A stretch of 63,749 bases of DNA, counting the filler, from Reclinomonas americana ATCC 50394 (lineage: Eukaryota), in assembly GCA_048213135.1 (NCBI GenBank). It is 5 parts of 4 records of this genome, joined end to end, with 100 filler letters (N's around TTAATTAATTAA, not from the genome) between each part and the next. Parts side by side here need not be neighbours in the genome. Positions count along the whole stretch, not along the records: positions 54,627 to 61,826 come from PS015389.1; 4 more parts are not named here. One strand, written 5' to 3'. A model generated the notes under the pieces. The model saw only the letters and a list, made by a program, of their open reading frames with translations. It made no database searches and had not been told where the DNA came from. Positions 2,811-62,006 of the stretch are shown in pieces; within the stretch, counting starts at the first letter, position 1, and the number at the start of each line of letters is the position of its first letter. The position numbers and the translations under genes were made by a program.

Positions 2811-4442
2811 TCACTGGCTGCTGGACGCCGCACCACCGACAAACGGACCACGATGTGTCTGTAGCACACCTGCAGGCCACGAACGAGAGTCAGTATCTCC
2901 CCAACTCTGCTTGCATTTTTTAGGGTAACACTTACCACCCTGGCGAGTGGACGTGATGACGATCTCACCCACTTGCACACGCGCCGGTCTGCACAGGCAA
3001 GCACGATGAGTGGAAGAATACACACACACGCGCGCGCGCACACACACGGCCACTCACCGAGTGGCGATCCACACCACCGCATCGGCAATGTCTTGCGGTG
3101 AGAGAGCCACGTCGCCCTCCAACACCTTGGAGGCGGCGGCCTCGTCACCGTCCAGACGCTGCACAAAGAACTCGGTCTCGACGAGTCCGGGACTGACCAT
3201 CGACACATTGACGGGCGTGTTGACCAGCTCCTTGCGCAGCGACTCGGTGTAGGCGCGCACGGCGAACTTGGACGCGCAGTACACCGAACCGTGCGGGTAC
3301 GTCTCAATGCCAGCAATGCTGCGAAGCGGCGTGAGGTGAGGTTGGGGAGGGAGAGAGAGAGAGAGAGAGAGAGAGGAGTGTGTGTGAGTGCACACGCACC
3401 TCGCCACATTGATAATGTGACCGGAGCCTCGCTCAATCATGCGCGGCACGAACAGACGCACGAGCTGGATCAGCGCCTTCACGTTGGTGTCAAACACCTG
3501 GTCGACATTGATGGCGCTGGCCTCCCACGCCTTGGGGTAGCCCTGCGCAATGGGGGGAAATCGGTGTGAGGGCGGGGGCAGCAGAAAGAGGGGGGGTGAA
3601 GAGTGGAGGGCGTACCCTCGCAAGGCCTGCATTGTTGACAAGAATGTCAATGTCACGCATGTCTTCCGGCAGTGAATCGCGCAGCCCCTCCGTCTCCTCG
3701 CGGTTCATCAAGTCGCAGCGGGCACAGTGCACGCGCACCGCATCGCCATGCTTCGCCTCAATGTCAGCCTTGACCGACTCGAGGCGCTCCAGACGACGCG
3801 CCACCAACACCAAGTGGCACCCTGCACAGCCAATGAGTAACACGCACGCACAACAAGATGAACGAACGCACAAGCACGCACCTTCCTCGGCAAAGGCGTA
3901 GGCCGCGGCCATGCCAATGCCAGCCGAGGCTCCGGTGCTGTCCGAGCACACACAAGATGTCATTCAAGAGGAAACGAGGAGCCAAGAGAGAGAGAGCGAG
4001 AGAAAGAGAGAGAGTCAAAAGCTGAATCAATCATGCATGTCGGAGTAAGAAAGGCGAAGAAAGGAGCCAAAGGAGGAGCTTATGTAAGGTGAGCGGAAGG
4101 GACAGGGGAGAGAGCAGAGAAACTTGAAGAGGAAGAAGAGGAAGAGTCACGCAAAGTAGAGAATGAGAGAGAAACAACATGCACAAGTCATCAGTCAAAA
4201 CCTCAATCAATCATGCATGCATGTCGGAAAATGACAGGCGAAGAGAAAAGCACAAGGAGGAGCTTATGTAAAGTGAGTGCAAGAGGAGGAAGAGCCACAG
4301 ATGGAGGAGCCAACAGAGTGATGCATTGCACGTGAGAAAACACACTTTGCAAGTTGCACAAGCAAAGAGTGATCTCGGAGGTGATTGTCTGTGTGTTATT
4401 GTGACGCAACATGAGAACAACCTTGCCAGCGATGCGCACCAT
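2811..4442 (-). CDS. Short-chain dehydrogenase/reductase (YdfG/YMR226C-like), about 7 exons
   Basis: Spliced product MVRIAGKVVLI|TGASAGIG, DILVNNAGLA, GHIINVASIAG, YCASKFAV, VSPGLVETEF, LSPQDIADAVVW; all introns GT-AG. Confidence 0.92.
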
Positions 4443-14500: not shown

Positions 14501-16058
14501 CAGTACACCAACACGGTGCCCAATATCACCACCCGCGCGCAGAGTGCTGGTGCCTGTGCAGGTGTGTGTTCCTTTTCGTCCTTGCATAGTCTTTTGTGGT
14601 GTGTCTCACTCTTGTGATTGTCAGGTGACACAACCATGAGTACCAGTGGATGCAAATGGTGTGAGATACTGCTGCATCCTGTCGTTGAGCTTGTTGTTGC
14701 TTGCTCACTACCAAGGCCCTTTGTTGTGTCTCTGCAGGTGCAACCAATCTGGTCAGCTCCGTGCGCTGGGCGACTGGACAAAGTCGACACAGTCGTCTAC
14801 GCGCGGCTATTGCGTCAACTCGGGCACATCTTGCAGCAACAGTGTCACTGGTATGACAGCCGCTGTGAACATGCTGGTCAACCAGGATGCTGTTGTGGCG
14901 TACCCGGTGCACGACAAGTGGAAGGAGAATGGCGACCAGGTGCTGGAGGAGGTGTTCCCGAACCGCTTTGCGTACTACAAGATCGCACCGCCACATCGGT
15001 GAGTTGCTGTTCCTGTGATCGCGTGCTATGGTCTACTCTTTCTCTCGCCCTTGTACTGACCTCCACCAACCACAATGCAGCAACTTTGACCTGCATGTGA
15101 TGGCGCGGAGCATCGACTATCTGCGACTGGGCGACAACCTGGACATGTACATCCAGCGCAATGCGGCTCCGACAACGTCGTCGTGGGCGTTCACGTCAGT
15201 GCGCGAGAGCAATCCGTGGGCGATTGATGTGTATTCGGAGGATTTGTGGGCGAACGGTTTGATGTGGATTTGTGTACGAGTTGAGTGGCGTGGTGTTTCG
15301 GAGCTCTCACACGATTCTGCTGTCGTACAGCTGGGTGCACGACGTCTGGATGCAATCCGTACTTCATTGGTGTGATGGGCGACAATCAGTTCCCGCAGAA
15401 GAGTGGGGCGTCGCAGTATCAGATGCAAGTGTGGCTTGGTGCGCTCGTGTTGGTCGATGGTGGTGTTGCTGCAATTGTGTTAGTTTTGGCTTCTCACAGT
15501 CACTCATCTCACAGAGATGAACTTTACTGATTTCACATGTGCGGACGCCAGCAGCAACAACTGCCTCAATCTCAAGATCCGCGACGGTACTACGGTGTCG
15601 GCGGGCGTCACTGCCATGCTTCTGTCGACGGCCGATTCAACCGGCAACGCAAATACTGATGCAGTGACGGTTCGTTGTGATTGGTGTCGGCAATCATGAG
15701 GTCATGGTTGACAAGAACTCGAGTGGCTCACTTTCACTGCTTTTGGCGTGCACAGTTTGTTGCTGACGATTTGACGCCTGTCAACAATGTCATGCGGCTG
15801 ACGAAGCAGAAGGCCGGGTCGATTCTGTCGCTGACCGATCGCCATCGCCGCTCGCACGTGTACTATGGCGACCAACTGTATCTGAAGAACGGTTTCGAGG
15901 CTCGTTTCCGGTTTCGCATCTCGTCGCTGGGTCTCTGCACAGAACTCGACGGGTGCGTNNNNNNNNNNNNNNNNNNNNNNNNNNNNNNNNNNNNNNNNNN
16001 NNTTAATTAATTAANNNNNNNNNNNNNNNNNNNNNNNNNNNNNNNNNNNNNNNNNNNN

Positions 16059-45817: not shown

Positions 45818-47720
45818 TCACAGCGGTTGCACGGTGACCACTGCGCATCGTCGTTGGTCAGCAGTCGTGTGACGTGAAAGAGAGACACGACGCATGGTGT
45901 ACCTTTGACGCCGCCGGTTGACGGCGACTGAACGCTGTATGTGAACACCCAGCCGCACGCGGCTCCTGCATACTCACCAGTGTTGGAGAGCACCACGATT
46001 CCGCCCTGCAACAGACAGGTGAGCGGGGGGAAAGAGAGAGAGAGAGAGACACGTGGTTGGAAGCGAGACCTTGAAGGTGGGAAACCGTTTCTTTATCCTC
46101 AGCACTGCAGCGCAATCCTCATCCATGAGTAGATGGTGATTGACATGGAACAGAGAAGCAGCAGCAAGTAACTGGCGTCAGTGGCAGCACTCGCTGGTGA
46201 CATGCCGAGTCGCAGACTCTCCACCGCTGCGATCGCACAGATGAGATGAGGAGCGTGAAGCGCAGGATCCATTATGACCACCAGCAGCACACCTTGATAG
46301 CACGGCAAGAATCGCATCATAATGTCACCATCACCAGTGGCCGCACAGCCTCCCACCTGACTGTCGACATATGCTCCACTCCTGCATGCAGCGATAAGTG
46401 AGAGAGGAGAGTACCTCGTGAATGCCCCGGTGCCGACTCACCCAATGATGGGACTGTCACCGACACGACCGGCCAGCTTGTGGCTGGCGCCATTGGTCGA
46501 CGTGCCCGCCGCCATGTTGCCATTCGGACTGAGGACCACCATGCCGATGGTGTCGTGGTTCGGCTCCTCGCTGGTGCCACTCGGCCGGATGTGCGGATTG
46601 GCGCGCATCGGTGTCGGCTGCAGAGAGGGACTGAGATTGGGAGAGAACAACAAGAGCACGAAAAAAAAGGCGAGGCAACTGTTCGTGGTTTGACGGGTTT
46701 GTAGGGGCCACACGAGGTGGTGGGATCCGGAGTGACGTTGCGCCAGTAATTCGGCTGGCATCGGTTGGCCTTCCAGTCCGTGTAGATCTTTTGACTCGCC
46801 GGCGTCGACAGCGTGGTCAGCGGGAACCCTGCGTACGTCGATCACTGCGTGTATGAGCGCAGAGAGAGAGAGAGAGAGATAGAAACGAGGAGCACAAGCA
46901 CACTCACCCATCTGCACAGCAAAATCGCTGGCACTGTAGCCGACCAGCAGCTGTCGCAAACGCTGCATGAGACTCTCGGGGCACAGACGCTTCCCGCCCA
47001 CCCATCGCCCCACACTCACCGTCTCCTGCGTGTGCTCCATCACCGCGCGTGCCACACCAATCGCATTCTTCACGCTGTGCAAGTCGGCCACGGAACCTGC
47101 CGGCCACCACCCATTGAGTATGGAGGCTCCATCAACATCAGCAACGGGCACGAACCACAGTCCATGGTGTCGCCCGACATGATCAGCGCTGTCACGACAC
47201 CACATGAGCTTCGGAGCGCACACAAGAGACAACACAACGACGCGCACACCATCAAGAGTTGTCTCGCCTGCACAGACTCGAAAATCAGCAACTCATGACC
47301 TCAAGAATGATCACTCTGCTCGCACACACGCGTACCGGTCTCATCGGGACTTCCACCATACCCGACAGTACCATCGCACTGCGCAGTCTCACACGCCGCA
47401 CAACCCTGCGCGCACACGCACAATGAGCTCCCTCCCAACACTCACGACGCGCGCTCTCTCAGCACCTGCTCCACAGCATCCAGCACAGTAGTCACATTGG
47501 CTCGCGGTCCAGCAGCCATCAGCACGTCCCACGCTCGCTGTACAGAGCGAGAGAGCGATCAAGAGCTCATTCAGATCCCCGCAACACATCAACAACAGAC
47601 CTGCGCGGCCACCACAAATGGTCCTCCCCATGTGTTGATCACCACTGGCGTCACAGCTGCGCAGTGTACAACTGCCACGCTGAACAGCAGAAGCGCGAGG
47701 AGAAGCACCCTCGTCCTCAT
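45818..47720 (-). CDS. AGA: N4-(beta-N-acetylglucosaminyl)-L-asparaginase (aspartylglucosaminidase)
   Basis: Signal peptide + [80 protein letters not shown] (autocleavage), [33 protein letters not shown]. Confidence 0.97.
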
Positions 47721-49307: not shown

Positions 49308-52300
49308 TCATCGCTTCTTGAACGAGAAGCCGCTCGCCTCTTCCTCCTCGTCGTCGATGACCATTGACGAGGTGGTGGTGGCCGCACGCTGCAATACAAA
49401 CACGATGGGTTACTTCCTCATACTAACCGCTGAACACAGCACAGCACCACGTACCGACAAAGCCTGCTTGGTGGCATCGCTGATCTTGCCGCCCTTGAAC
49501 AGCTTCTGCTCCACCATCTCCTTGGCCTTGGCCTTGGCCGCCGCCTTCTTAGCCTCCTCCGCCTTTTCGGCCGCCTGCCCCACCCACACATGAGTGAGCA
49601 TTCGATTGACATCATCATCAGCATCAGCGTCGTAACGTACCAGTCGTGCCTCTCGTGCCTCCGGAGTCTCTGCGTCGACTGGGGCGCGCTTGGGCGTCGC
49701 CGGTGCCGCCGACGGCTCAAACGTCGATGGCGTCGCAGACTGCGTGCACGTGAGTTATGCAGGGAGCAAGAGAAGGTATGGAAGCGGGGAAAAACCGCAC
49801 CGACGCGGCCGCCGAGCCCTTGACCGGCGTCACGCCAATGACAGCATCGAGTGGTGCCTCGGCCACACCCGTCACCTTGTTGGGCGAGAACTTGACAAAT
49901 TTGCTCTTGCGCGCACTGGCCGGTGTCTCGGGGGCCTTGCTCGCAGTGGTGCCCTTCTTGGCCGGCGTGCGAGGAGCGGATCCTCGTCGAATCTTGCCGC
50001 CCTCCACTTTGCCGCCGCTGCCAAACACCATCTCCTGTTCCTCTTCGTCTTCGTCTTCGGGTTCGTCGACAGCCGACTCCACAGGCGCAGTCGCCTTGGC
50101 CGTGGTGCTTGGACCGCGCTTCGACGGTGAGGGGGCTGAGGGCGAAGGCGCACAGTCAGAATGCAGCAAACAAAATGAGGAGTACGTCTCTCGTGCGACA
50201 ACAGACCAGTGTCACTGGACACCGCCACGTCTTCGTCTTCGTCCTCGGAATCCGAGGCAGCGCCACCAGCAGTGGCCGCACTGCCGTGTACAGGTCGTGC
50301 CGAGTTGAATGACTCGCGCTGCGTCACTTGCATGGACGATGCAGTGGCGGTCACCGTCGTGCTCGTCGCGGAACCAGTGTAGCGTGACGCTGGTGCAGCA
50401 GCAGCAGCGGCAACAACAACAGGCCGAGAGGCCAGTTCCTCCTGCAAGAGCAGCGCATGTGATCAGCCACGCACAACGACAACCATGTCGAAGATTCCGT
50501 AACACACCAACTTGCGCTGCAGCGCGGCCACTTGTGCGGAGAGCGTCTTTTCCACGTTCTTTTGTGCCACATCAACAGCATTCGTGACAATTGCCTGCGT
50601 CTCCGCACTGTTCGTAATGCATGTAGGTGTGAGCAACTGAGAGTGGGAGTCTGGCGGCACACACATACACACACTGACCGTCGCATGTTCTCCTCAAAGT
50701 GCGCCAGCTGCGCTTCCACTTGTCGCTCGGCAAACGCAGTGGTGATGCGCTGCGCCACAGCCGGATAATTCATGTGGTGCACCAGTCGGGCAGCGGTCTC
50801 TGCAGGCACGTACACCCCGCAGCATATCGAGTGAGACACACGAGACTGCGGTCGTGAGAGTGACAGAAACCGCACGTACCGACAGCCTTGTCGGTGCACA
50901 TCAACAGCGCCAAATCAAACGCCTTGGTCACATGTTGCTTCTCAATGGCGCTCTGCGACACGGACGAGAAGGTTGAGCTGTGGCGAATCGGACTCCTGTC
51001 ACCGACAAACGAGTCACCTTGATCATGCGCAGCAGCGTCTTGTCAATGGCATTCTCCAACGCCTGCTTGTCTGGCGGGTTGTGCGGGCGGGCGGCCATGC
51101 ACTCCAGACCGAATTGCTGGTGAATAATGCTGCACAGCACATGCGGAGGAAAGGAGAGCGCGCGTCAGCAACTACCAGCGCCATGGGAGAATCAGCTGTC
51201 TTGTCTCCTCACCCAGCCTCCTGTCCAGTAAACGCCATGCCCGGATTCAACAGCGGCAGCGACATGGCCACCGAGTTGACAGACGGCGGTCGAACGACGT
51301 CCGGGAACGGACGAGACGCCTGTGTGGTGTGTACGTACATGTAAGAAGACGATAGACAATTGGCACAGAGACAGCAAGAGCGTACAAACCGTGCACTCGA
51401 CGACAAACACATCCTGATTCTCGTGACCAAACACCCACAGTGGGCGGGCGCCGTTCTGCGACAGTGGGCTGGAACGCAGCTCGCACATGACGGCCCATTG
51501 CAGAGGCGTCTTCAGAGGCACACCGCGGACAACGCCAGTGGAATCGGCAGCGATAAAAAGCTGTGTGGGATGTCAGCAGCGGCACGATGTTGGGTCGCAG
51601 GCCGGCATGCAACACGCAACATTGGGATCCGACTCGGAGAACCCAAGCCATGTCAATGCTGCTCCCGGCGACACAGGCACCACGCCATGATCGACCTGAC
51701 ACCGTGAGCGCATGGCCACGGCCAAATACTCGAAACCGCCTGTAATGTGGTGAGCAGCGGATGATGGAGAATGAAGTAAGAACGTCGCGCGCACCGCAAT
51801 TGTCGTCAAAAACCAGCACCAGCATATCATTGCTGTTGGCCACCACGCACACGGGCTCGCGGTGCACACTGAATAGGCCGCATTGCACGCCTCCGCTGGT
51901 GAGCACACGCACGAACAGCCGGTTGGTCACGCAAGCGCAAAAGTGCCGACCGAGTCCAATACCCAGTGGTTCCTACACAATGCAATGGCGTGAGTCGGAA
52001 CTCCTCTCACCTCAGCGTGTTGTGTGCACGCGCACAAACCTCGCCAGGCGACAAGTGCAGCGACCAATCGGCGTCCGGTGTCCACTTGTCAAAGGCGCGG
52101 AACATGACCACTGCGGGGTTGCCGCCGTTGCTGTGACTGGCAAACAAGGCACCCGTCGCCGCTGCGTTTCGTGGCGGTGTAAGCGAGGAGCAGCAATAAC
52201 GCGCGTTGTCATTCTCAGCTCACCCATGGACGCCATGCGCAGGCCGTGATGCTCGGTGAAACGCACAGTGGGGTGCGACTTGTCGGAGAACTCGATCTCC

Positions 52301-54417
52301 ACCGACCACGACGTGTGAGCAAATGTCGACTTGATGCGACCCAGCAACGTGTAGGCGAGGAACCGACGACCCTCGACTTCAGGAGTGCTGCCGGGGAAGA
52401 GAGGCGGGTGTGCCGCGACACTCCGCAACCGACCGACTACACACCACGACATTGTTGAGAGGAGCAGTACATTTGCGCAGACAATAAAACGCGTGTACGC
52501 AACCACCGCCACGGCGCCTGTGACCACCCGCCTCTGAATCGTCGTCATCGTCGCTATACGCACGTCGCTGGGAGTGTGTGCTCACGATGAGCATCAAGGT
52601 GACTGCAATTCCCTTGGAAGAGCACATCAACTCTCACCCGTCGCTTCCGGGGTCCTGCGCCAGACAAACCAACCTGCAGGTCCTCATCCTCCTCCGAGTA
52701 GCCCTCACCATCCTGTTATCGCAACATACGTGAGTGTGGAGGTTGGCTAGCACTCATCGAACAAGCACAGTACCTCGTCGTCGCTGGCTTCCTCGGCCTC
52801 GTCATTGCTCCACGCGTCGTGGTCGCCACCTGTGCGGCGCCGGCGCTTACGAATGCGTCCTGCAGCAGCAGCAATCATAACGTGAGACATGGACCCGAGC
52901 AAAGAGAGTGGAAGCGCATCAAACGAAACGCTTCTCGGTGCGCTCGTCGCCCGACGACTCGGCGTCGAAATCAAACATGTCGGTGGCAGGCGCGGCAGGT
53001 TTCGCACCCGCTGCCTGCGAGTCGACGGCAGATGCCGATGAAGCATGAGCAGCAGCAGAAACAGCTGCAGTGGGAGCCGCAGCAGAGACGGGAGTGCGGT
53101 CCACATCCATCGAGTCGACCTGTGTGGCGATGACGACTGTAAGATTGCTTTCCACGCACACAACAAGTTCGTCTGAGCGGCGCGACTGACCTTGCGCAGC
53201 TCCTCCACAGACACGTGCGGCGGTGGCATGTAGTCGGGAATGACCTCGGGCCAGTACAGTACACGACCATCGCCGTCGGCAGCCGCCAGCGCATTGGACA
53301 CCAGAGACCACACGACCACGAGCACCGGCGAGTCGTGCTTGAAGCGATCGAGGCATTCCTTCTTCGCCACGTCCCACACAGAGACAATGTTGTCCATGCC
53401 ACAGGCCGCCAAGTAGCGCCCAGTGCCGGAAAACGACACGGCGGAGATCGACTGCGTGTGCACCGAGCCGACCAGCATGGCCTTCAATTCGAATGACCGC
53501 GCATCGTACACCTTGATGTCTGGAGATGCGGTGAGGAGAAGAGGGGAATGAATGCAGCCTAGATTGTCCATGATTCGCAACTTTTGCCATCTGGCACCGC
53601 AATCGTCTCGCCACGGGGATGCCAGTCGAAGCGCAGTGAGTCGAGGTCACTGAGAAGCGGCCAGTTGAGCAAACACACAATAGGCTTCACAACACGTAGT
53701 GCGAATTGTGCACGAAACTCGGGAAGCACTTTCTGGATCGGCAGCGAGTGCACCGCTTCACCGCCATCGACGTTCCACACGCGCAGGAATCCGTCGCAGC
53801 CGGCCGTGGCCTGTCGGAAAACATGAGCACGACAACGGTGCAGTGCAGGCGGTGAAGACACGCACCACACGCTTTCCGTCAGGCGCAAAGCGCACATGCT
53901 TGACCGCGTTGGTGTGCCCACGCAGCGGCGTCGACTGGCGATGATCAAACGTGCTCACCAACCGCACCAGCGGCTCACTAACACGAGCGACAAGTATAAC
54001 ATTAGCGACACGGACGAGGGCTGATCGCTGCGCCCCGCACGCAACTCAGAGGCGCACGCCAGCAGCGCGCCACTCGGCGAGAAGCACACGCTGCGCACGG
54101 GCTTGGTGAAGCGCGTGACCGTGCCACCGGCAGTCGACAAGCCCGGCAACGACAGCAATCGCACTCCATGATCCTCGGAACCAGTCGCCAACTGATCGCC
54201 CTACTCACACGCACAGACAATCAGCTCCATGCACGCACACATGCAACTCACAATGCATTGTCGTGCACTGACCTCGGGCGACACACTGAGGCACGTCACC
54301 GCCGCCTCATGCGCAGTCTCCGATCGCTTCACTTGCTCGAACTCGGCCACCGAGGAGTCACTCGGCTTGACACGGAACGAGCACACGGCTCCGTCGGCGC
54401 CGCACGTGAACAGCAGA
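49308..54417 (-). CDS. WDHD1: WDHD1/AND-1/Ctf4 replisome factor; 5' end in gap
   Basis: N-terminal WD40 (LFTCGADG, ATGSEDHGV, TRFTKPVRSVCFSPSG, LRGHTNAVK, FDWHPRG), acidic linker, SepB domain PLFPGSTP..GRRFLAYTLLG...VEIEFSD, GGVQCGLFS, LTWLGFSE, WPLWV, helical DKTLLRMI. Confidence 0.88.
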
Positions 54418-54522: not shown

Positions 54523-54570
54523 GTAGNNNNNNNNNNNNNNNNNNNNNNNNNNNNNNNNNNNNNNNNNNNN

Positions 54571-54582
54571 TTAATTAATTAA
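54571..54582. other. Artificial contig linker
   Basis: TTAATTAATTAA within Ns. Confidence 0.95.
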
Positions 54583-54637
54583 NNNNNNNNNNNNNNNNNN
54601 NNNNNNNNNNNNNNNNNNNNNNNNNNTTTTTTGCGCA

Positions 54638-57600
54638 GCGACCGACACTGTGGGAGCGCTGAAGCAACGTGTGTGCGACGAGTTTGGAGTGCCTGGAGTC
54701 GCCGGCGACACACTCGTGCTGGTGGACGATGGCGCGGAGCTGGGTGTGGACAGCAATGATCGGCGTCTTGGTCAGCTCGGCAGTGTTGCGGGTGGCAAGC
54801 CGCTGGCTGTGGTGCGTGCACTGTGGCTGGTGTGGTGAAGACAGTCTGCGATATTGACACTGTGTGTTGGTTCGTACCACCGCAGCGATGGTTGCCGTAT
54901 CCGGTGACGGTGGGTCGATGGAGCGGCAAGAAGGATGTGTGCACTGTGACAGGTGAGTATATGAGCTGCATGAAGGGGGGTAACGATAATTGGCTGGCTG
55001 ATTTCGTCTTCGATGCTCCAGCGGTGACACCGATTAGTGCACTCCGCGAGCACGCAGTGGCGCAAGAGCACTTGCCCCCTGCGGTGGCCAAGGAGGTGGT
55101 GCTTCGCGACCGCCAGGGTCATGTGCTTGCCGAGGGCGATGATGCCACGCCAGTGGCTCGTGTCGGCATCCGTCCGACCGATGAGGTCGCAGCGGTTCGT
55201 GTCGAGTGAATGGTGCGTCAAGAGTGGAGATGAGTAACGTGACTGTTGTCGGCAAGCAGGAACTGAAGACGGAGACGCTCGACATTGAGCTGCCGAGTGG
55301 ACGAGTTGTTCAGGTTCCAGATCTCCGAGGTCTGTGCATCACAACGTGTTTGAATGCTGTTTTCTTGCTTCTAACCTCTCGTGTTACGCATTTGTGTTCT
55401 TCTGTTGCGTGTTTGGTGCAGCATCGGACGGCCTGCGACGCCTGCAAGAGCAAGTGTGCGAAGCCGAGGGTCTCCCGAAGTCAGCCGCCAATCAAGTGGA
55501 GCTGCTGCGCGACGACCGCGCGACTGCACTGCCGACTGGCGACGAGGGTGCGAGTGTTGGTGGTGTGGGACTGCATCACGGCAGCAAGGTGGTGGCACGG
55601 TGGCACGAGTCNNNNNNNNNNNNNNNNNNNNNNNNNNNNNNNNNNNNNNNNNNNNNNNNNNNNNNNNNNNNNNNNNNNNNNNNNNNNNNNNNNNNNNNNN
55701 NNNNNNNNNNNNNNNNNNNNNNNNNNNNNNNNNNNNNNNNNNNNNNNNNNNNNNNNNNNNNNNNNNNNNNNNNNNNNNNNNNNNNNNNNNNNNNNNNNNN
55801 NNNNNNNNNNNNNNNNNNNNNNNNNNNNNNNNNNNNNNNNNNNNNNGCCGCTGAACGTGGTGACGTGGAGCGGGCGATCTGTGCCTGTGCGAGCCACTCG
55901 TTGCGTCCGGCGTCTCCATACTTTGATGGAAGGTGGTGGAATTTGATGGTTGACTGACTAAGTGTGAATGCAGCGGCGACGACACTGGGAGCCATTGCAG
56001 AGCAGGTTGCTGCGGCCGAGAACCAGCCAGCGCCGGTGGCGCAGAACATTGTGCTGCGAGCTGGCGGCAATCGTGATCTTCCTCGCGATGGTCAGACACC
56101 GTTGGGAGCGGCTGGAGTGCAGCCGAACGAGCGCGTCGAGGCTGTTGCGTGCTTTCGATCATTTCCACTTGTGGATTTCGCTCTCTCACCACTGCATGCC
56201 ACCAGATTGTGCTACCGATGAGCATCGAGGTCGTCACACCTGCCGGTTCGCGCACTGCGATCGACAATCTCAAGCGTGCGTTTATGTCGTCTTTCTGTCA
56301 CTCACGGCCCATACCCGGTCTCAGTCTGGCATTGTCATTCGCAGCGACCGACACTGTGGGCGCACTCAAGCGCCGTGTGGCCGACATTGACCACATGCCC
56401 GAGTCGATTGCTCCTACTCTCGTACTGCGCACGGCCGAAGCTGGAGCTCCGCTGGCGGCGACCGACCAAGACAGTCTGGCCGTCGCTGGTGTCGGTGCGC
56501 GCTCTATTGTCTTGACGGTTGGTTACGCTTCTCCATCTGCCTCCTGTGCTGTGATCGTCTTGTGTGTTCTCACGAAGCAATCGTGGCAGTCGTGGCCGGA
56601 GAAGAAGCTCACGTTGCGCACGTGGACTGGGCGTGCTGTTGAAGTGTCGACTGTCGGTACGTGGAACCTCTTTCTTCGCTGTCGCCCTGTTGACACTTCC
56701 GTTGACTTTCGCCAACAGCCTCCACTCCTCTGAGCGACTTGCGCGTGCGTGCCGCACACTTGGAGGGTCTGCCACCGGGCGCAGTCAAGTTTGTGCAGCT
56801 GCACGATCGCCCTGCGCAAGCCGCAAGTCGGCAAGTGGACGGCGAAGGAAAGCAGATTCTCGCCGACGCCAATCTTGCCGGAGACGAGATTGTCGCGGTT
56901 CGTTCACCTGCCCAGGTTGCTTGGGAGGGAGAGAGAGTGACAACACGTGACTGACCAGGTGCTGTTTGATGCAGGTTTTGCGGTCCCCGGTCTTCACGCT
57001 TGCCACTCCGCTGGCGAAACCTGTTCCTGTGGGCGACATCAGTGGTGAGTTCGTCAGTGCCGAAAGTTGTGTGTTATGCCGAGTGGGTTACTCACATGAG
57101 GTTTCAGCTGCCGAGCCGCTGAAAGTCATCCAGGAGCGCGTATGTATTGCCGACGGAGTGCCATTGATGGCCGCGCCGGATCTTGTGTTTGTGCGCGCAT
57201 CAGGCCAACCCATCGAGCAGAATCCATCGCATTCATTGGTGGCGGCTGGTGTCGATGACAATGATGTGCTGGTGACGGTCTGTATTCTCCTAGAATACAG
57301 AGGTTCGGGTCGCGTCACCTCTTCGACTCACGTCATTATTTGCAGCGCTGGAAGGAGCGCACTCTGCGTATCGCCACGTGGAATCGACGCACTATTACCG
57401 TCAGTGTTACTGGTGCGTGCATGTGTCTTGCCGCGTCAGTTTCCATGTTTTTCACTGACGTCGCTTTGTTTTCCGGCGAGCAGCGGTGACTCCACTTTCG
57501 GAACTGCAGTCGACTGTGGCGCACGTGGAAGAGCTGGACCCGTCACTTGGCGCCGCAGCAGTGGTGTTGTCGTCGCAAGATGGTCGACCGTTGCCGCACG

Positions 57601-60600
57601 ATCTGTTGATTGCACAAGTGCCGGAGTTGGTCGACGGTGCCACCATTCAGGCGGTATGTATCTACACATCTAAGCTTGCGAGTGGGGTTCTGTGCTCACG
57701 AGAACGTTTGTCGACAGACCCTCCAACAAGTTCCGCTCACGGTTGTGCCACCGTCTGGTCGTGAACCGGTTGTGGTTTCCGACGTCCCTCGTTCGTCGCG
57801 GCGTGCACACATCTTTGAGTTGTGTTTCAACTCTGCGTACTCATCCGTCCGCTTTGCTTGTGCAGTGACGGGCACCTTTGCACCGGTGGTGGAGCGCATG
57901 TGCGTTGCCGATCGTGTGGCGCCTGCAAGCGCCGCTCGCCATGCTCGCCTGTTCCACAATGGGCGCGAAATCCCACACCCACTGGAGACCATCGTGGCGG
58001 CGTCTGGCGTGCCCGCCGGTGCCACTCTCACCTCGGTCAGTTGACCCGATCAGCATGCGAATTGTGTTCCGCGCGCTTTTGCTAATTGTGTGGACTGCGC
58101 AGTCTTGGGCTCCGATGCAGCTGAATGTGCTTCCGGCAAGCGCCGCTGGAGGGCAGGCGGCAGTGCCGATCTCTGTTACTCGTTGCGTAACTAACACACA
58201 TGCCGCGCGATTCTTATGTGACGTGATGCTCACTGGACGCAATCAGCCGCCACCACAATCAACGAGCTGAAGCAGCAGTGCGCCGAAAAGTCTGGAATGC
58301 CGCCGTCAGTGGCCCCATTCCTGGCTTTGCGCAGCGCGCAATCAGGAGCTCCACTTGGTGGCGACCATGTGCAGACGGTGTCGCAGTTGGAGCTGACCGG
58401 TGGCGAGTCCATCCAAGTGGTGAGTTGTTTCACCAATGTGTTGCGATGACGTCTGCGAGCGTTGACCATCTCCCTTGCGTTTACAGGATGGAGTCCCGGT
58501 CACTGTCAACGTGCAGTTGGAGGATCAGAGCGTGGTGTCTCTGCGTGCGCCAGGTGCGATTGCCTTTCGTGATGACGATTTCATTCGTAGCTCTGCTGAC
58601 CGACATTGCACTGTGGTCTACCAGTCACCGCCCCGGTCAGCAGCCTCAAGGAGCAAGTATTGCAGTCCTCTGGCATTCCAGTCGCCGATCAGGAGCTTGA
58701 GTTTGACGGCATCGATCTCGACAATGATGCGTTGCTCGGGTCGTTTGGCGTGGTGGATGGAACTACGATTATCTTGGTGCGTTGGGCTTACACTCTCTTT
58801 GGGATCTCTCGTGATTGCTCACATGCGCGACAGCGCGAGGCCGTCGAGGTTGTGGTGGAGACGCACACACTGAAGACGATTACTCTGCGCGTGCACTGTT
58901 GCGTCTCATCGATGTATCCACGATTCGTGACCGCGTGCTGATGGTGGTGCCGTGGGCAGATGACACGACGATTGGCAGCATCAAGGAGACCATTGTGGGC
59001 GTGGAAGGCCTCGACGTCGGCAAGGTACAGATGGGCAACGACAGCGGTCCGCTGGGTGATGCGATGACCATTCGTGATGCGGGTGTCACCAAGGGCTCCG
59101 TTCTGAAGATGGTGAGCCGTGCATGGTTGCTGTCTGTGAAGGGTGTGATTGATTCACGGTGTACTCTTTCTTGTCACAGACCGCGGTGGATGATCAGAGT
59201 GCGGTTGCAGCGGTGTGTTTCTCCTCAATCGCAGTGCTGTTTGCTCGTTGATGCCGGCTGCTCAACTCATTCATACCTGTGTACAGCCGTCTCAGCGCCC
59301 GCTTTTCTTCCGCAAGAAGCGTGAGGTGGCGGCTGATGCGCAGATTGTGGATCGTGCTGCGGCAGCGCCGCTTGGCGCCTCGTGGATGGAAATGGACGAC
59401 GAGGATGTGTCTGTCGGTCCTGCTTCGCCACTGTCACCACAATTCTCCGCGGTGCCGCCACAGCTGCCGACGATGATCGATTCGTGCCCGTATCACTATC
59501 GCGTACGCGCCAAGAAGAATCGACGCCCTGGCTCGGCTGCGCCGGACAAGAACTTGGTGAGTGCGCGCTAAGATTACATTCGTGGTGTGCCCTCGCTTGC
59601 CAACCTCGCGAGCTGTCGTGCAGTACCCGTTGAAGCCGAAATTTGGTGTCGAGCTGGCTGGTGAGTCGTGTGTGTAGTAGGTAAGCGTGACGTTACCGAG
59701 TTGCTGACAACGGCGGTGCTTTTGCAGAATCGGAGATCAGCGGTATGCTGGTCGACTTTACGGCCACCATTACCGTGTTGCAGCGCTTTGTGAACCGCGG
59801 ACCGGCTGGTCAGTTCCAGTACGTGCTGCCGCGTTTGCAGCCCAGTGCAGTGATCACCGAGGCCACGTTGAGGATGCAGCGCACGGAGTACAAGGTTTAG
59901 TCTCCGTCTGCGGTGATCAAGGAGAATCGGAGCTGCACACATGACTGACTCGGTGCCCCGCCCAGGTTACGGCCCAGCGCGGCACGGCGCAGCAGTTCGA
60001 GGAGTTCGACAAAGAGGGCGAGAGCAACGAACAGGCGGCTCTCATCCGCGACAGTGAGCAGGAGGTGCTACTGATCGACGTTGGCCGACTTGAACCCGAG
60101 GAGGAGGTGCGAAGGGTTGAAGGAAAAAGGTGCTGTGCATTTCATGATACTCACGCGCCTCCACCAATCCACCAACAGGTCGTGGTGCGCTTCTCGTATG
60201 CCTTCGAGGCCGAGTACGACAAGGACACGCGCAGTATTCGGGTGACGGTGCCATTGTCGGCATTGCAGGAGGAGCAGCTGTAAGTCGCCGGTGTACGTGC
60301 TGTGCTTGGCGCTCCTTCCGTCACTCACGTGTTGGATTTGACAGGTCGTCAAAGGATGACTTGGTGGACATCACGTGTCGCATGTCGCGCCCCGTGCTCG
60401 AAGTGCTCTCCCCGACCCACCTGTGTCGCCTGGAGCGCACGGAGAACCAGGTGCAGGTGGTAGCCATGGGCAGTCAGCCGGTGTACGACCAGTTCGTGCT
60501 GCACGTGTATCTGCAGGCACCGACGTTCCCGCTGTGCTCTTCGTACCGCCACCCCGGTGCTCCGCGCAACGCGTCGCATGCCATTGCAGTGGCTCTCGGT

Positions 60601-60823
60601 GCGTTTTTCTGGGAAAAGAGGCTTATCGTGCACAGAGAATGATTGACACGTATCAATGTGCAGTGCCGCCGCCCGACATGGCGCCGCGCACCTTGAACAC
60701 GGTCATGACCTTTGTCGTGGATTGCTCCGGCTCCATGGAGGGTGATCGCATCAGAGAAGCCAAGAGTGCGCTGATGTTGTTCATTCAGAGTCTGGCGGTG
60801 GATGTACCGTTTAACATTGTCAA
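54638..60823 (+). CDS. Protein with at least 12 tandem divergent ubiquitin-like domains followed by VIT and vWA domains (VWA5A-like C-terminal module); both ends in gaps
   Basis: Ubl units such as VTVNVQLEDQSVVSLRAP|VTAPVSSLKEQVLQSSGIPVADQELEFDGIDLDNDALLGSFGVVDGTTIIL; VIT ATITVLQRFVN...FQYVLP...AVITEA...IDVGRLEPEEE|VVVRFSY; vWA FVVDCSGSMEGDRIREAKSALMLFIQSL...FNIVK. Confidence 0.8.
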
Positions 60824-61723
60824 GTGAGTAAGCGGGAAAGGGGGATAAGAGGGAAAGTAGAAGGGAAAGGGGGGATAGAGGGAAGGGGAGAGGCGGGGGA
60901 AGAGAGGGAGCGGAAAGGAGTGGGAAGGGGTGAGAGGAAGGGTAAGAGTGAGTGAGGGAGGGGGAGGGAGGGAGTGAGAGAGAGAGAGAGTGAGTGAGTG
61001 AGTGAGTGAGTNNNNNNNNNNNNNNNNNNNNNNNNNNNNNNNNNNNNNNNNNNNNNNNNNNNNNNNNNNNNNNNNNNNNNNNNNNNNNNNNNNNNNNNNN
61101 NNNNNNNNNNNNNNNNNNNNNNNNNNNNNNNNNNNNNNNNNNNNNNNNNNNNNNNNNNNNNNNNNNNNNNNNNNNNNNNNNNNNNNNNNNNNNNNNNNNN
61201 NNNNNNNNNNNNNNNNNNNNNNNNNNNNNNNNNNNNNNNNNNNNNNNNNNNNNNNNNNNNNNNNNNNNNNNNNNNNNNNNNNNNNNNNNNNNNNNNNNNN
61301 NNNNNNNNNNNNNNNNNNNNNNNNNNNNNNNNNNNNNNNNNNNNNNNNNNNNNNNNNNNNNNNNNNNNNNNNNNNNNNNNNNNNNNNNNNNNNNNNNNNN
61401 NNNNNNNNNNNNNNNNNNNNNNNNNNNNNNNNNNNNNNNNNNNNNNNNNNNNNNNNNNNNNNNNNNNNNNNNNNNNNNNNNNNNNNNNNNNNNNNNNNNN
61501 NNNNNNNNNNNNNNNNNNNNNNNNNNNNNNNNNNNNNNNNNNNNNNNNNNNNNNNNNNNNNNNNNNNNNNNNNNNNNNNNNNNNNNNNNNNNNNNNNNNN
61601 NNNNNNNNNNNNNNNNNNNNNNNNNNNNNNNNNNNNNNNNNNNNNNNNNNNNNNNNNNNNNNNNNNNNNNNNNNNNNNNNNNNNNNNNNNNNNNNNNNNN
61701 NNNNNNNNNNNNNNNNNNNNNNN

Positions 61724-62006
61724 TGAGTGAGTGAGTGAGTGAGTGAGTGAGTGAGTGAGTGAGTGAGTGTGAGAGTGAGTGAGTGAGAGAAGAGTGAGTG
61801 AGTGAGTGAGTGAGGGAGGGAGGGAGNNNNNNNNNNNNNNNNNNNNNNNNNNNNNNNNNNNNNNNNNNNNTTAATTAATTAANNNNNNNNNNNNNNNNNN
61901 NNNNNNNNNNNNNNNNNNNNNNNNNNAGAGTGAGAGAGTGTGTGAGTGTGTGAGAGAGGGAGAGAGAGAGTGAGTGATGAGGGAGTGTGTGAGTGAGCGA
62001 GTGAGA

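Follow-up and report, generated by a model that had tools for sequence, protein, structure and literature searches.

A long array of divergent ubiquitin-like domains, predicted to be joined to a VIT-vWA module, in Reclinomonas americana

We analysed a 63,749-nucleotide stretch of DNA, filler included, from Reclinomonas americana ATCC 50394 (hereafter the window). One gene on a 7.2-kb scaffold of this window (54627-61826) encodes a series of head-to-tail ubiquitin-like (Ubl) units, followed in the splice model by a linker, a VIT domain, a hybrid-type segment and the beginning of a vWA domain with a metal-ion-dependent adhesion site (MIDAS). An initial annotation, made by reading the sequence of this region, had described at least 12 divergent Ubl units at 54638..60823 and had proposed that they are fused to VIT-vWA in a new architecture. 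The observation was confirmed, with twelve units at the annotated coordinates, and the interpretation was partly supported.

The gene model was built from coordinates on a three-frame reading of 54627-61011, in which short open segments switch frame at GT donor and CAG acceptor sites. It comprises 31 exons on the + strand (54639-60822) and 29 introns that can be read completely. Every one of these runs from GT to CAG, with lengths of 57-92 nucleotides (mean 68.8), and the donor carries G at position 5 in 24 and T at position 6 in 21 of them. The content of guanine and cytosine (GC) is 61.4% in exons versus 52.3% in introns, and the spliced frame shows GC fractions of 0.68, 0.46 and 0.70 at codon positions 1, 2 and 3, a periodicity that the introns do not have. 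This frame is free of stops for 223 codons before and 1075 codons after a gap of 235 N (55612-55846). The scaffold starts with the last 12 bases of an intron, whose acceptor CAG ends at 54638; at the other end, a GTGAGT donor at 60823 opens an intron that runs into a second gap of 712 N (61012-61723). As the 5' end of the gene is missing, "at least 12" is the correct wording for the number of units. The features of the gene are as follows.

54639..54811, + strand: Ubl unit 1, second exon only, the first exon being lost at the scaffold start; 25.0 bits in the leave-one-out comparison
54886..55194, + strand: Ubl unit 2, exons 54886-54952 and 55022-55194, with an in-frame intron of 69 nucleotides
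55260..55611, + strand: Ubl unit 3, exons 55260-55329 and 55422 onward, the end clipped by the 235-N gap
55847..56143, + strand: Ubl unit 4, exons 55847-55899 (truncated by the 235-N gap) and 55974-56143
56206..56517, + strand: Ubl unit 5, exons 56206-56275 and 56345-56517
56590..56897, + strand: Ubl unit 6, exons 56590-56656 and 56719-56897
56975..57277, + strand: Ubl unit 7, exons 56975-57044 and 57108-57277
57346..57653, + strand: Ubl unit 8, exons 57346-57412 and 57484-57653
57718..58035, + strand: Ubl unit 9, exons 57718-57790 and 57866-58035; 19.2 bits, among the two most divergent
58103..58419, + strand: Ubl unit 10, exons 58103-58181 and 58247-58419
58487..58776, + strand: Ubl unit 11, exons 58487-58553 and 58625-58776; the second exon alone scores 32.7 bits against a Pfam ubiquitin cut-off of 25.4
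58834..59111, + strand: Ubl unit 12, exons 58834-58897 and 58960-59111; 18.5 bits
59180..59556, + strand: linker of about 101 residues, two phase-0 exons 59180-59212 and 59287-59556
59624..60279, + strand: VIT domain, four exons 59624-59660, 59728-59894, 59966-60106 and 60179-60279
60345..60598, + strand: segment between VIT and vWA, at the Hyb-1a position, with an SPTH motif versus SPSH in the bacterial consensus
60664..60822, + strand: first vWA exon with the MIDAS motif DCSGS; VWA_2 23.2 bits, VWA 21.4 bits
60823..61826, + strand: terminal intron, purine-rich and filled with microsatellites, extending into the 712-N gap and to the scaffold end; the rest of the gene lies beyond

The introns themselves offer a few observations. 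Donor position 3 is T in 9 of the 29 (GTT.GT); most eukaryotes prefer a purine at this position. Five introns (54953-55021, 56276-56344, 56518-56589, 57045-57107 and 60107-60178) are divisible by three in length and free of in-frame stops, and their retention would add about 21-24 residues in a loop without truncating the protein. Microsatellites of the types (GAGT)n and (TGAG)n flank the 712-N gap on both sides (60823-61011 and 61724-61826), and the low-complexity, purine-rich intron is probably the reason why the assembly breaks here.

The array consists of twelve head-to-tail units of 72-84 residues each, the first one partial. Two exons make up every unit: a shorter one of about 22 residues, with a phase-0 start and a phase-1 end, and a longer one of about 57 residues. 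The intron between them sits at a constant position across the units. The units succeed each other directly, about four residues separating the last strand of one from the first strand of the next. Their pairwise identity is 12-38% (mean 22%), and Tandem Repeats Finder saw no DNA-level repeat across the array, which rules out a recent tandem duplication; the units are old copies. To ask of each unit whether it belongs with the others, leave-one-out hidden Markov models (HMMs) of eleven units were compared with the twelfth. All twelve units were recovered with 18.5-61 bits, and for every unit none of 1000 shuffles reached the real score. Judged by these profiles, the twelve units are one family.

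To assess the relationship to ubiquitin, the twelve second exons were aligned (A1) and used as a profile. Among all chains of the PDB, A1 matched a nine-unit polyubiquitin (E 2e-27), ISG15 (E 5.4e-7, a single matched stretch) and FUBI (E 3.6e-5), and it aligns with ubiquitin residues 20-67. An alignment of full units, compared by hhalign with one canonical ubiquitin unit from library protein P0015, matched with 96.4% probability (E 1.1e-9) over 67 columns and ubiquitin residues 1-67. This match indicates that the first exon corresponds to the beta1-beta2 hairpin; the intron within each unit falls near ubiquitin residue 19. In line with the beta-grasp-like pattern first noticed, the units are, by sequence profile, ubiquitin-family (Ubl beta-grasp) domains. 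Hydrophobic residues occupy the core positions Ile13, Ile36, Leu43, Phe45, Leu50, Leu56, Ile61 and Leu67 in 10-12 of the 12 units; at the Ile13 position these are 11 units, unit 1 being without that column.

None of the 12 units ends in Gly-Gly, none has an equivalent of Lys48, and one has an equivalent of Lys63. The units are therefore predicted to be neither releasable nor chainable. Near-identical repeats, a trait of polyubiquitin precursors, are also not a property of these units. Cleavable polyubiquitin, which the initial annotation had already rejected, is ruled out by the absent Gly-Gly and the divergence of the units.

Along the array, units of the same parity share 24.7% identity versus 20.4% for units of different parity, a difference that was reached by 16 of 5000 random labelings. 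In three of the six even units (2, 6 and 8), an Arg/Ser-Trp start goes together with a Trp where ubiquitin has Leu8. Of these two features, unit 10 shows only the start, as Ser-Trp, unit 4 only the Trp (its start falls in the gap), and unit 12 neither. This two-unit super-repeat suggests that the array grew from a two-domain, ISG15-like module. Parity is kept across the 235-N gap, which argues against an odd number of hidden units. Two unit types also alternate along the chains of library proteins P0005, P0009 and P0013. A two-Ubl module may be a recurrent seed of such arrays.

Downstream of the array, no family match was found for the linker, which contains two basic clusters. The VIT domain was recognised as two halves of PF08487 in the correct order (N half 17.3 bits, C half 14.2 bits), each under the cut-off of 26.5 because introns split the domain; the exon of the N half alone found no match in the PDB. 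Of the vWA domain, the first ~53 residues are present with an intact DxSxS motif, and the rest lies beyond the intron that runs into the gap. In the PDB, the first vWA exon matched best the beginning of the vWA domains of ITIH1 (E 0.0094) and ITIH4 (E 0.027).

The same exon matched 80 bacterial loci (L002-L081) at 40-59% identity, from which 403 open reading frames (ORFs) were compared. The spliced C-terminal part of 387 residues matches 76 of the 403 ORFs. In the best case (E 7e-15), residues 105-387 of the query align with residues 21-315 of the target in the same order, and all six top ORFs consist of Pfam VIT (97-107 bits) plus VWA. A profile of 40 bacterial ORFs scored 85.8 bits against the C-terminal part (E 1.9e-25), whereas 1000 shuffles gave at most 4.0 bits. 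The aligned stretch takes in the end of VIT, the SPTH/SPSH motif and the MIDAS stretch. The order of the C-terminal part also agrees with the layout of VIT, Hyb-1a and vWFA described for ITIH1, VWA5A and Dictyostelium Vwa1 (Boland et al. 2023, PMC10539598). Three tests of family membership gave the same answer: on sequence grounds, the C-terminal part is a genuine VIT-vWA module with a MIDAS motif, as had been annotated, and a hybrid-type segment lies between the two domains.

We then placed both parts among known proteins. Compared with 1.84 billion representative proteins, the A1 profile had 340 matches at E<=0.001, 83 at <=1e-10 and 4 at <=1e-30; comparisons with array proteins cover the best 150 of the 340. 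A Pfam scan of 29 long proteins among these 150 revealed 6-23 matched ubiquitin stretches in each of the 29 and a VIT or vWA family in none. One of the 29 has a GNAT domain, and another has an Ig_VWA7 match over a Ubl unit, with no stretch passing alone. Eight of the top array proteins consist of 11-24 Ubl domains placed head to tail, and each protein has 0-1 Gly-Gly near its unit ends. Judging from these sequences, long uncleavable Ubl arrays are not unique to the Reclinomonas gene. Among the best 150 we found no specific relative of its array: the array proteins score a mean of 10-30 bits per domain versus 29 for the canonical polyubiquitin P0015, so that their units are no closer than ubiquitin itself.

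The combination of array and VIT-vWA gave a different picture. The 387-residue C-terminal part returned nothing at E<=10 in a phmmer search of the same 150 array proteins, and conversely no significant Ubl unit was found in the 403 ORFs of the bacterial VIT-vWA relatives (best unit-HMM E 0.034). Word-based protein searches, made with the exon of the hybrid segment, with the first vWA exon and with A1 (12 rows), found no scoring relative, which is weak evidence. The hybrid-segment exon yielded one metagenome locus (L001), dismissed as a bacterial contig of 38% GC with one shared word, and an uninformative best score of 0.75 in the ESM Atlas. In our literature search, no publication described a Ubl array linked to VIT-vWA. 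The text examined of PMC10539598 contains no occurrence of "ubiquitin-like"; its supplements (alignments, domain diagrams) might show such a protein. The novelty proposed at the outset is thus not borne out for the long Ubl array alone, but the combination with VIT-vWA, seen in 0 of the 150 array proteins, appears not to have been described previously.

Among characterised proteins, human VWA5A/BCSC-1 and Dictyostelium Vwa1 and Vwa2 have the same order of VIT, hybrid segment and DxSxS vWA, but their VIT domain is N-terminal (PMC10539598), whereas at least 12 Ubl domains and a 100-residue linker precede it here. The comparison with VWA5A and Vwa1 extends from VIT to the first vWA exon, their C-terminal half (remaining vWA with the distal MIDAS Thr and Asp, Hyb-1b, helices, C-terminal domain) having its counterpart outside the present sequence. 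The closest sequence relatives fetched are bacterial VIT-vWA proteins (e.g., ORFs of L016, L017, L011 and L003), which lack a Ubl unit and have a median of 64 residues before VIT. In PARP4 (vault PARP), the added part is BRCT plus a PARP catalytic region, with no Ubl domains. Its position before the VIT-vWA core is a likeness to the Reclinomonas gene (PMC10539598).

With respect to the array, polyubiquitin of the UBB/UBC type and M1-linked polyubiquitin likewise string ubiquitin folds head to tail with about four residues between them, but polyubiquitin units are near-identical, unlike the divergent units without Gly-Gly found here. ISG15, the best single-stretch match in the PDB, has two Ubl domains, comparable to the two-unit super-repeat. 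It ends in Gly-Gly and is a conjugated modifier, whereas the Reclinomonas units are predicted to be integral domains. Library array proteins such as P0001, P0003, P0005, P0009, P0011, P0013 and P0035 are likewise long uncleavable Ubl chains, several of which alternate unit types. A functional parallel is offered by the MIDAS domain of Rea1/Mdn1, whose ligands are the UBL domains in Rsa4 and Ytm1; a MIDAS-UBL complex has been solved for Rea1 (PMC6624252). There, MIDAS and UBL are on separate proteins and their binding is shown, while in Reclinomonas they would be on one chain and binding is hypothetical.

Integral Ubl domains are modules on which proteasome receptors, p97 adaptors and UBA/UIM proteins dock, and vWA MIDAS sites bind acidic ligands via a metal ion. 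Against this background we tentatively favour, giving it somewhat less than an even chance, an account in which at least 12 integral Ubl domains, a linker and VIT-vWA form a non-enzymatic multivalent adaptor. The Ubl domains, having no Gly-Gly, would not be released as modifiers. The linker of about 100 residues would connect them to a VIT/hybrid/vWA head like those of VWA5A, Vwa1, PARP4 and the bacterial proteins, and this MIDAS-bearing head would use its metal site to bind a partner. The Ubl chain would either offer many weak docking sites for readers of Ubl or ubiquitin, or hold the head at a distance. The protein is predicted to be intracellular. VIT-vWA proteins inside the cell are known from across the eukaryotes and have been described as hubs for binding; in Dictyostelium, Vwa1 and Vwa2 co-purify with FbxwD, an F-box protein of an SCF ubiquitin ligase (both PMC10539598). 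Function as an adaptor, considered on its own, is possible but doubtful.

Several points weigh against this account. The gene is cut at both ends by the scaffold ends, and the N-terminus, the distal vWA and any further domains lie outside. The beta-grasp fold of the units is predicted from sequence alone. Likewise, the fusion of array and VIT-vWA proposed by the initial annotation holds as an in-frame reading, but one continuous protein is a prediction of the splice model. An HMM check of each repeat, which had been suggested with that annotation, succeeded in the leave-one-out comparison, yet only 4 of the 12 single second exons reached Pfam PF00240 at E<=1 (best 8e-8). A Pfam ubiquitin match was also absent for three units readable through in-frame introns, probably due to the ~21-23 intron-encoded residues. 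On the surface, only 6 of the 12 units have a hydrophobic residue, Val, at the Ile44 position; the remaining six have Glu, Gln, Arg or Ala there, and no surface patch is conserved. This makes uniform docking by ubiquitin receptors less plausible. With the Lys48 and Lys63 equivalents not conserved either, a uniform ubiquitin-receptor surface is not evident for the scaffold or decoy of proteasome, p97 or DUB readers that the initial annotation had put forward as a possibility. Finally, a relative with the same architecture was not found in our searches, so conservation cannot support a function.

A more basic question is whether array and head belong to one gene. According to the splice model they very probably form a single transcript: the introns that join unit 12, both linker exons and the first VIT exon (68, 74 and 67 nucleotides) have signals and phases like the others. 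Two adjacent genes would instead require a poly-Ubl gene ending at 59321 and a VIT-vWA gene starting at Met 59386, the first Met of the second linker exon, or at an upstream in-frame ATG. With its intron retained, the frame past unit 12 indeed runs open up to a stop at 59321, which speaks against a fusion, and Met codons are present in frame 0, itself open from 59194. The median of 64 residues before VIT in the bacterial relatives (in stop-to-stop ORFs) and the lack of a similar VIT-vWA region in the best 150 Ubl-array proteins would also fit separate genes. However, only ~65 nucleotides would separate stop and start, both linker exons are flanked by splice sites like those of the other 26 introns with matching phases, and GC at third codon positions is 0.67 both upstream and downstream of Met 59386. 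We consider two genes improbable. A decaying pseudogene or an assembly chimera, with no such protein made, is more improbable still. The draft assembly has gaps, the scaffold is short and no relative with the same architecture turned up, but ~1298 open codons over 31 exons, 29 of 29 intact splice sites and a clear coding periodicity speak against it, as does the location of the Ubl-to-VIT junction in unbroken sequence (55847-61011).

If one protein is made, its Ubl chain could be a passive mechanical stalk or spacer, like the Ig/FN3 arrays in adhesins, that presents a vWA adhesion head, possibly extracellular, with no link to ubiquitin signalling. Since only fold-core positions are conserved and the surface varies freely, this is a serious rival to the adaptor. 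Furthermore, the units are joined by ~4 residues without linkers, VIT-vWA proteins include the extracellular ITIH chains while the closest relatives fetched are bacterial, and the N-terminus lies outside the sequence, where a signal peptide is possible. Nevertheless, we think a stalk unlikely: paired cysteines are not evident in the units when read by eye, and we know of no case of ubiquitin-family domains serving as an extracellular stalk. In addition, protist VIT-vWA proteins are predicted to be intracellular (PMC10539598). Less probable than a stalk is binding of the vWA MIDAS to an acidic loop of its own or a neighbour's Ubl units, leading to autoinhibition or head-to-tail self-assembly. 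The solved Rea1 complex provides a precedent, the DxSxS motif is intact, and for related proteins autoinhibition or homodimerisation (Dictyostelium Vwa1) has been proposed and metal-dependent dimerisation via MIDAS (ITIH1) reported (PMC10539598). However, the remainder of the MIDAS belongs to the part of the gene outside the sequence, and no acidic position is conserved in all units; we rate this reading as quite improbable. The protein might also be an uncleavable, encoded mimic of linear polyubiquitin tethered to a MIDAS head. It would then recruit chain readers (proteasome receptors, p97 adaptors) by avidity to the cargo of the head, or the head would bind the Ubl units of neighbours, as Rea1 does with Rsa4 and Ytm1, in a self-assembling scaffold. 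This proposal is speculative and has a small chance of being right.

The window as a whole consists of five contigs with identical joining spacers of 44 N + TTAATTAATTAA + 44 N, located at 15959-16058, 30052-30151, 54527-54626 and 61827-61926. As the contigs were joined artificially, gene adjacency across the spacers is meaningless. The other contigs hold ordinary eukaryotic genes, which are uninformative on the surroundings of the Ubl/VIT-vWA gene:

3057-3704, - strand: short-chain dehydrogenase
35349-36258, - strand: WD40 protein
46441-47292, - strand: asparaginase-2 family protein
51250-53646, - strand: exons of a Mcl1/Ctf4/WDHD1-like WD40 protein

No extra Ubl units were found elsewhere in the window, and an Rfam scan of the whole window gave no match.

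The architecture of the Reclinomonas gene is built from known parts and is of moderate interest. Its value is limited for now, as the gene is fragmentary and relatives with the same architecture were not found in our searches. Proteins with integral Ubl domains usually have one or two of them, which serve as tags for docking to the proteasome or p97. The cellular role of VIT-vWA proteins is poorly understood; VWA5A is a tumour-suppressor candidate. The two-exon structure of each domain, together with the two-unit super-repeat, provides a clean example of how such an array grows. If the favoured account is true, a metal-dependent binding module that carries 12 or more Ubl domains would represent an extreme case of multivalent, conjugation-free ubiquitin mimicry and a direct physical link between VIT-vWA proteins and the ubiquitin system. 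If instead the polyubiquitin-mimic or self-assembly reading is true, the protein would reveal a new wiring of ubiquitin-like recognition that works without conjugation enzymes.

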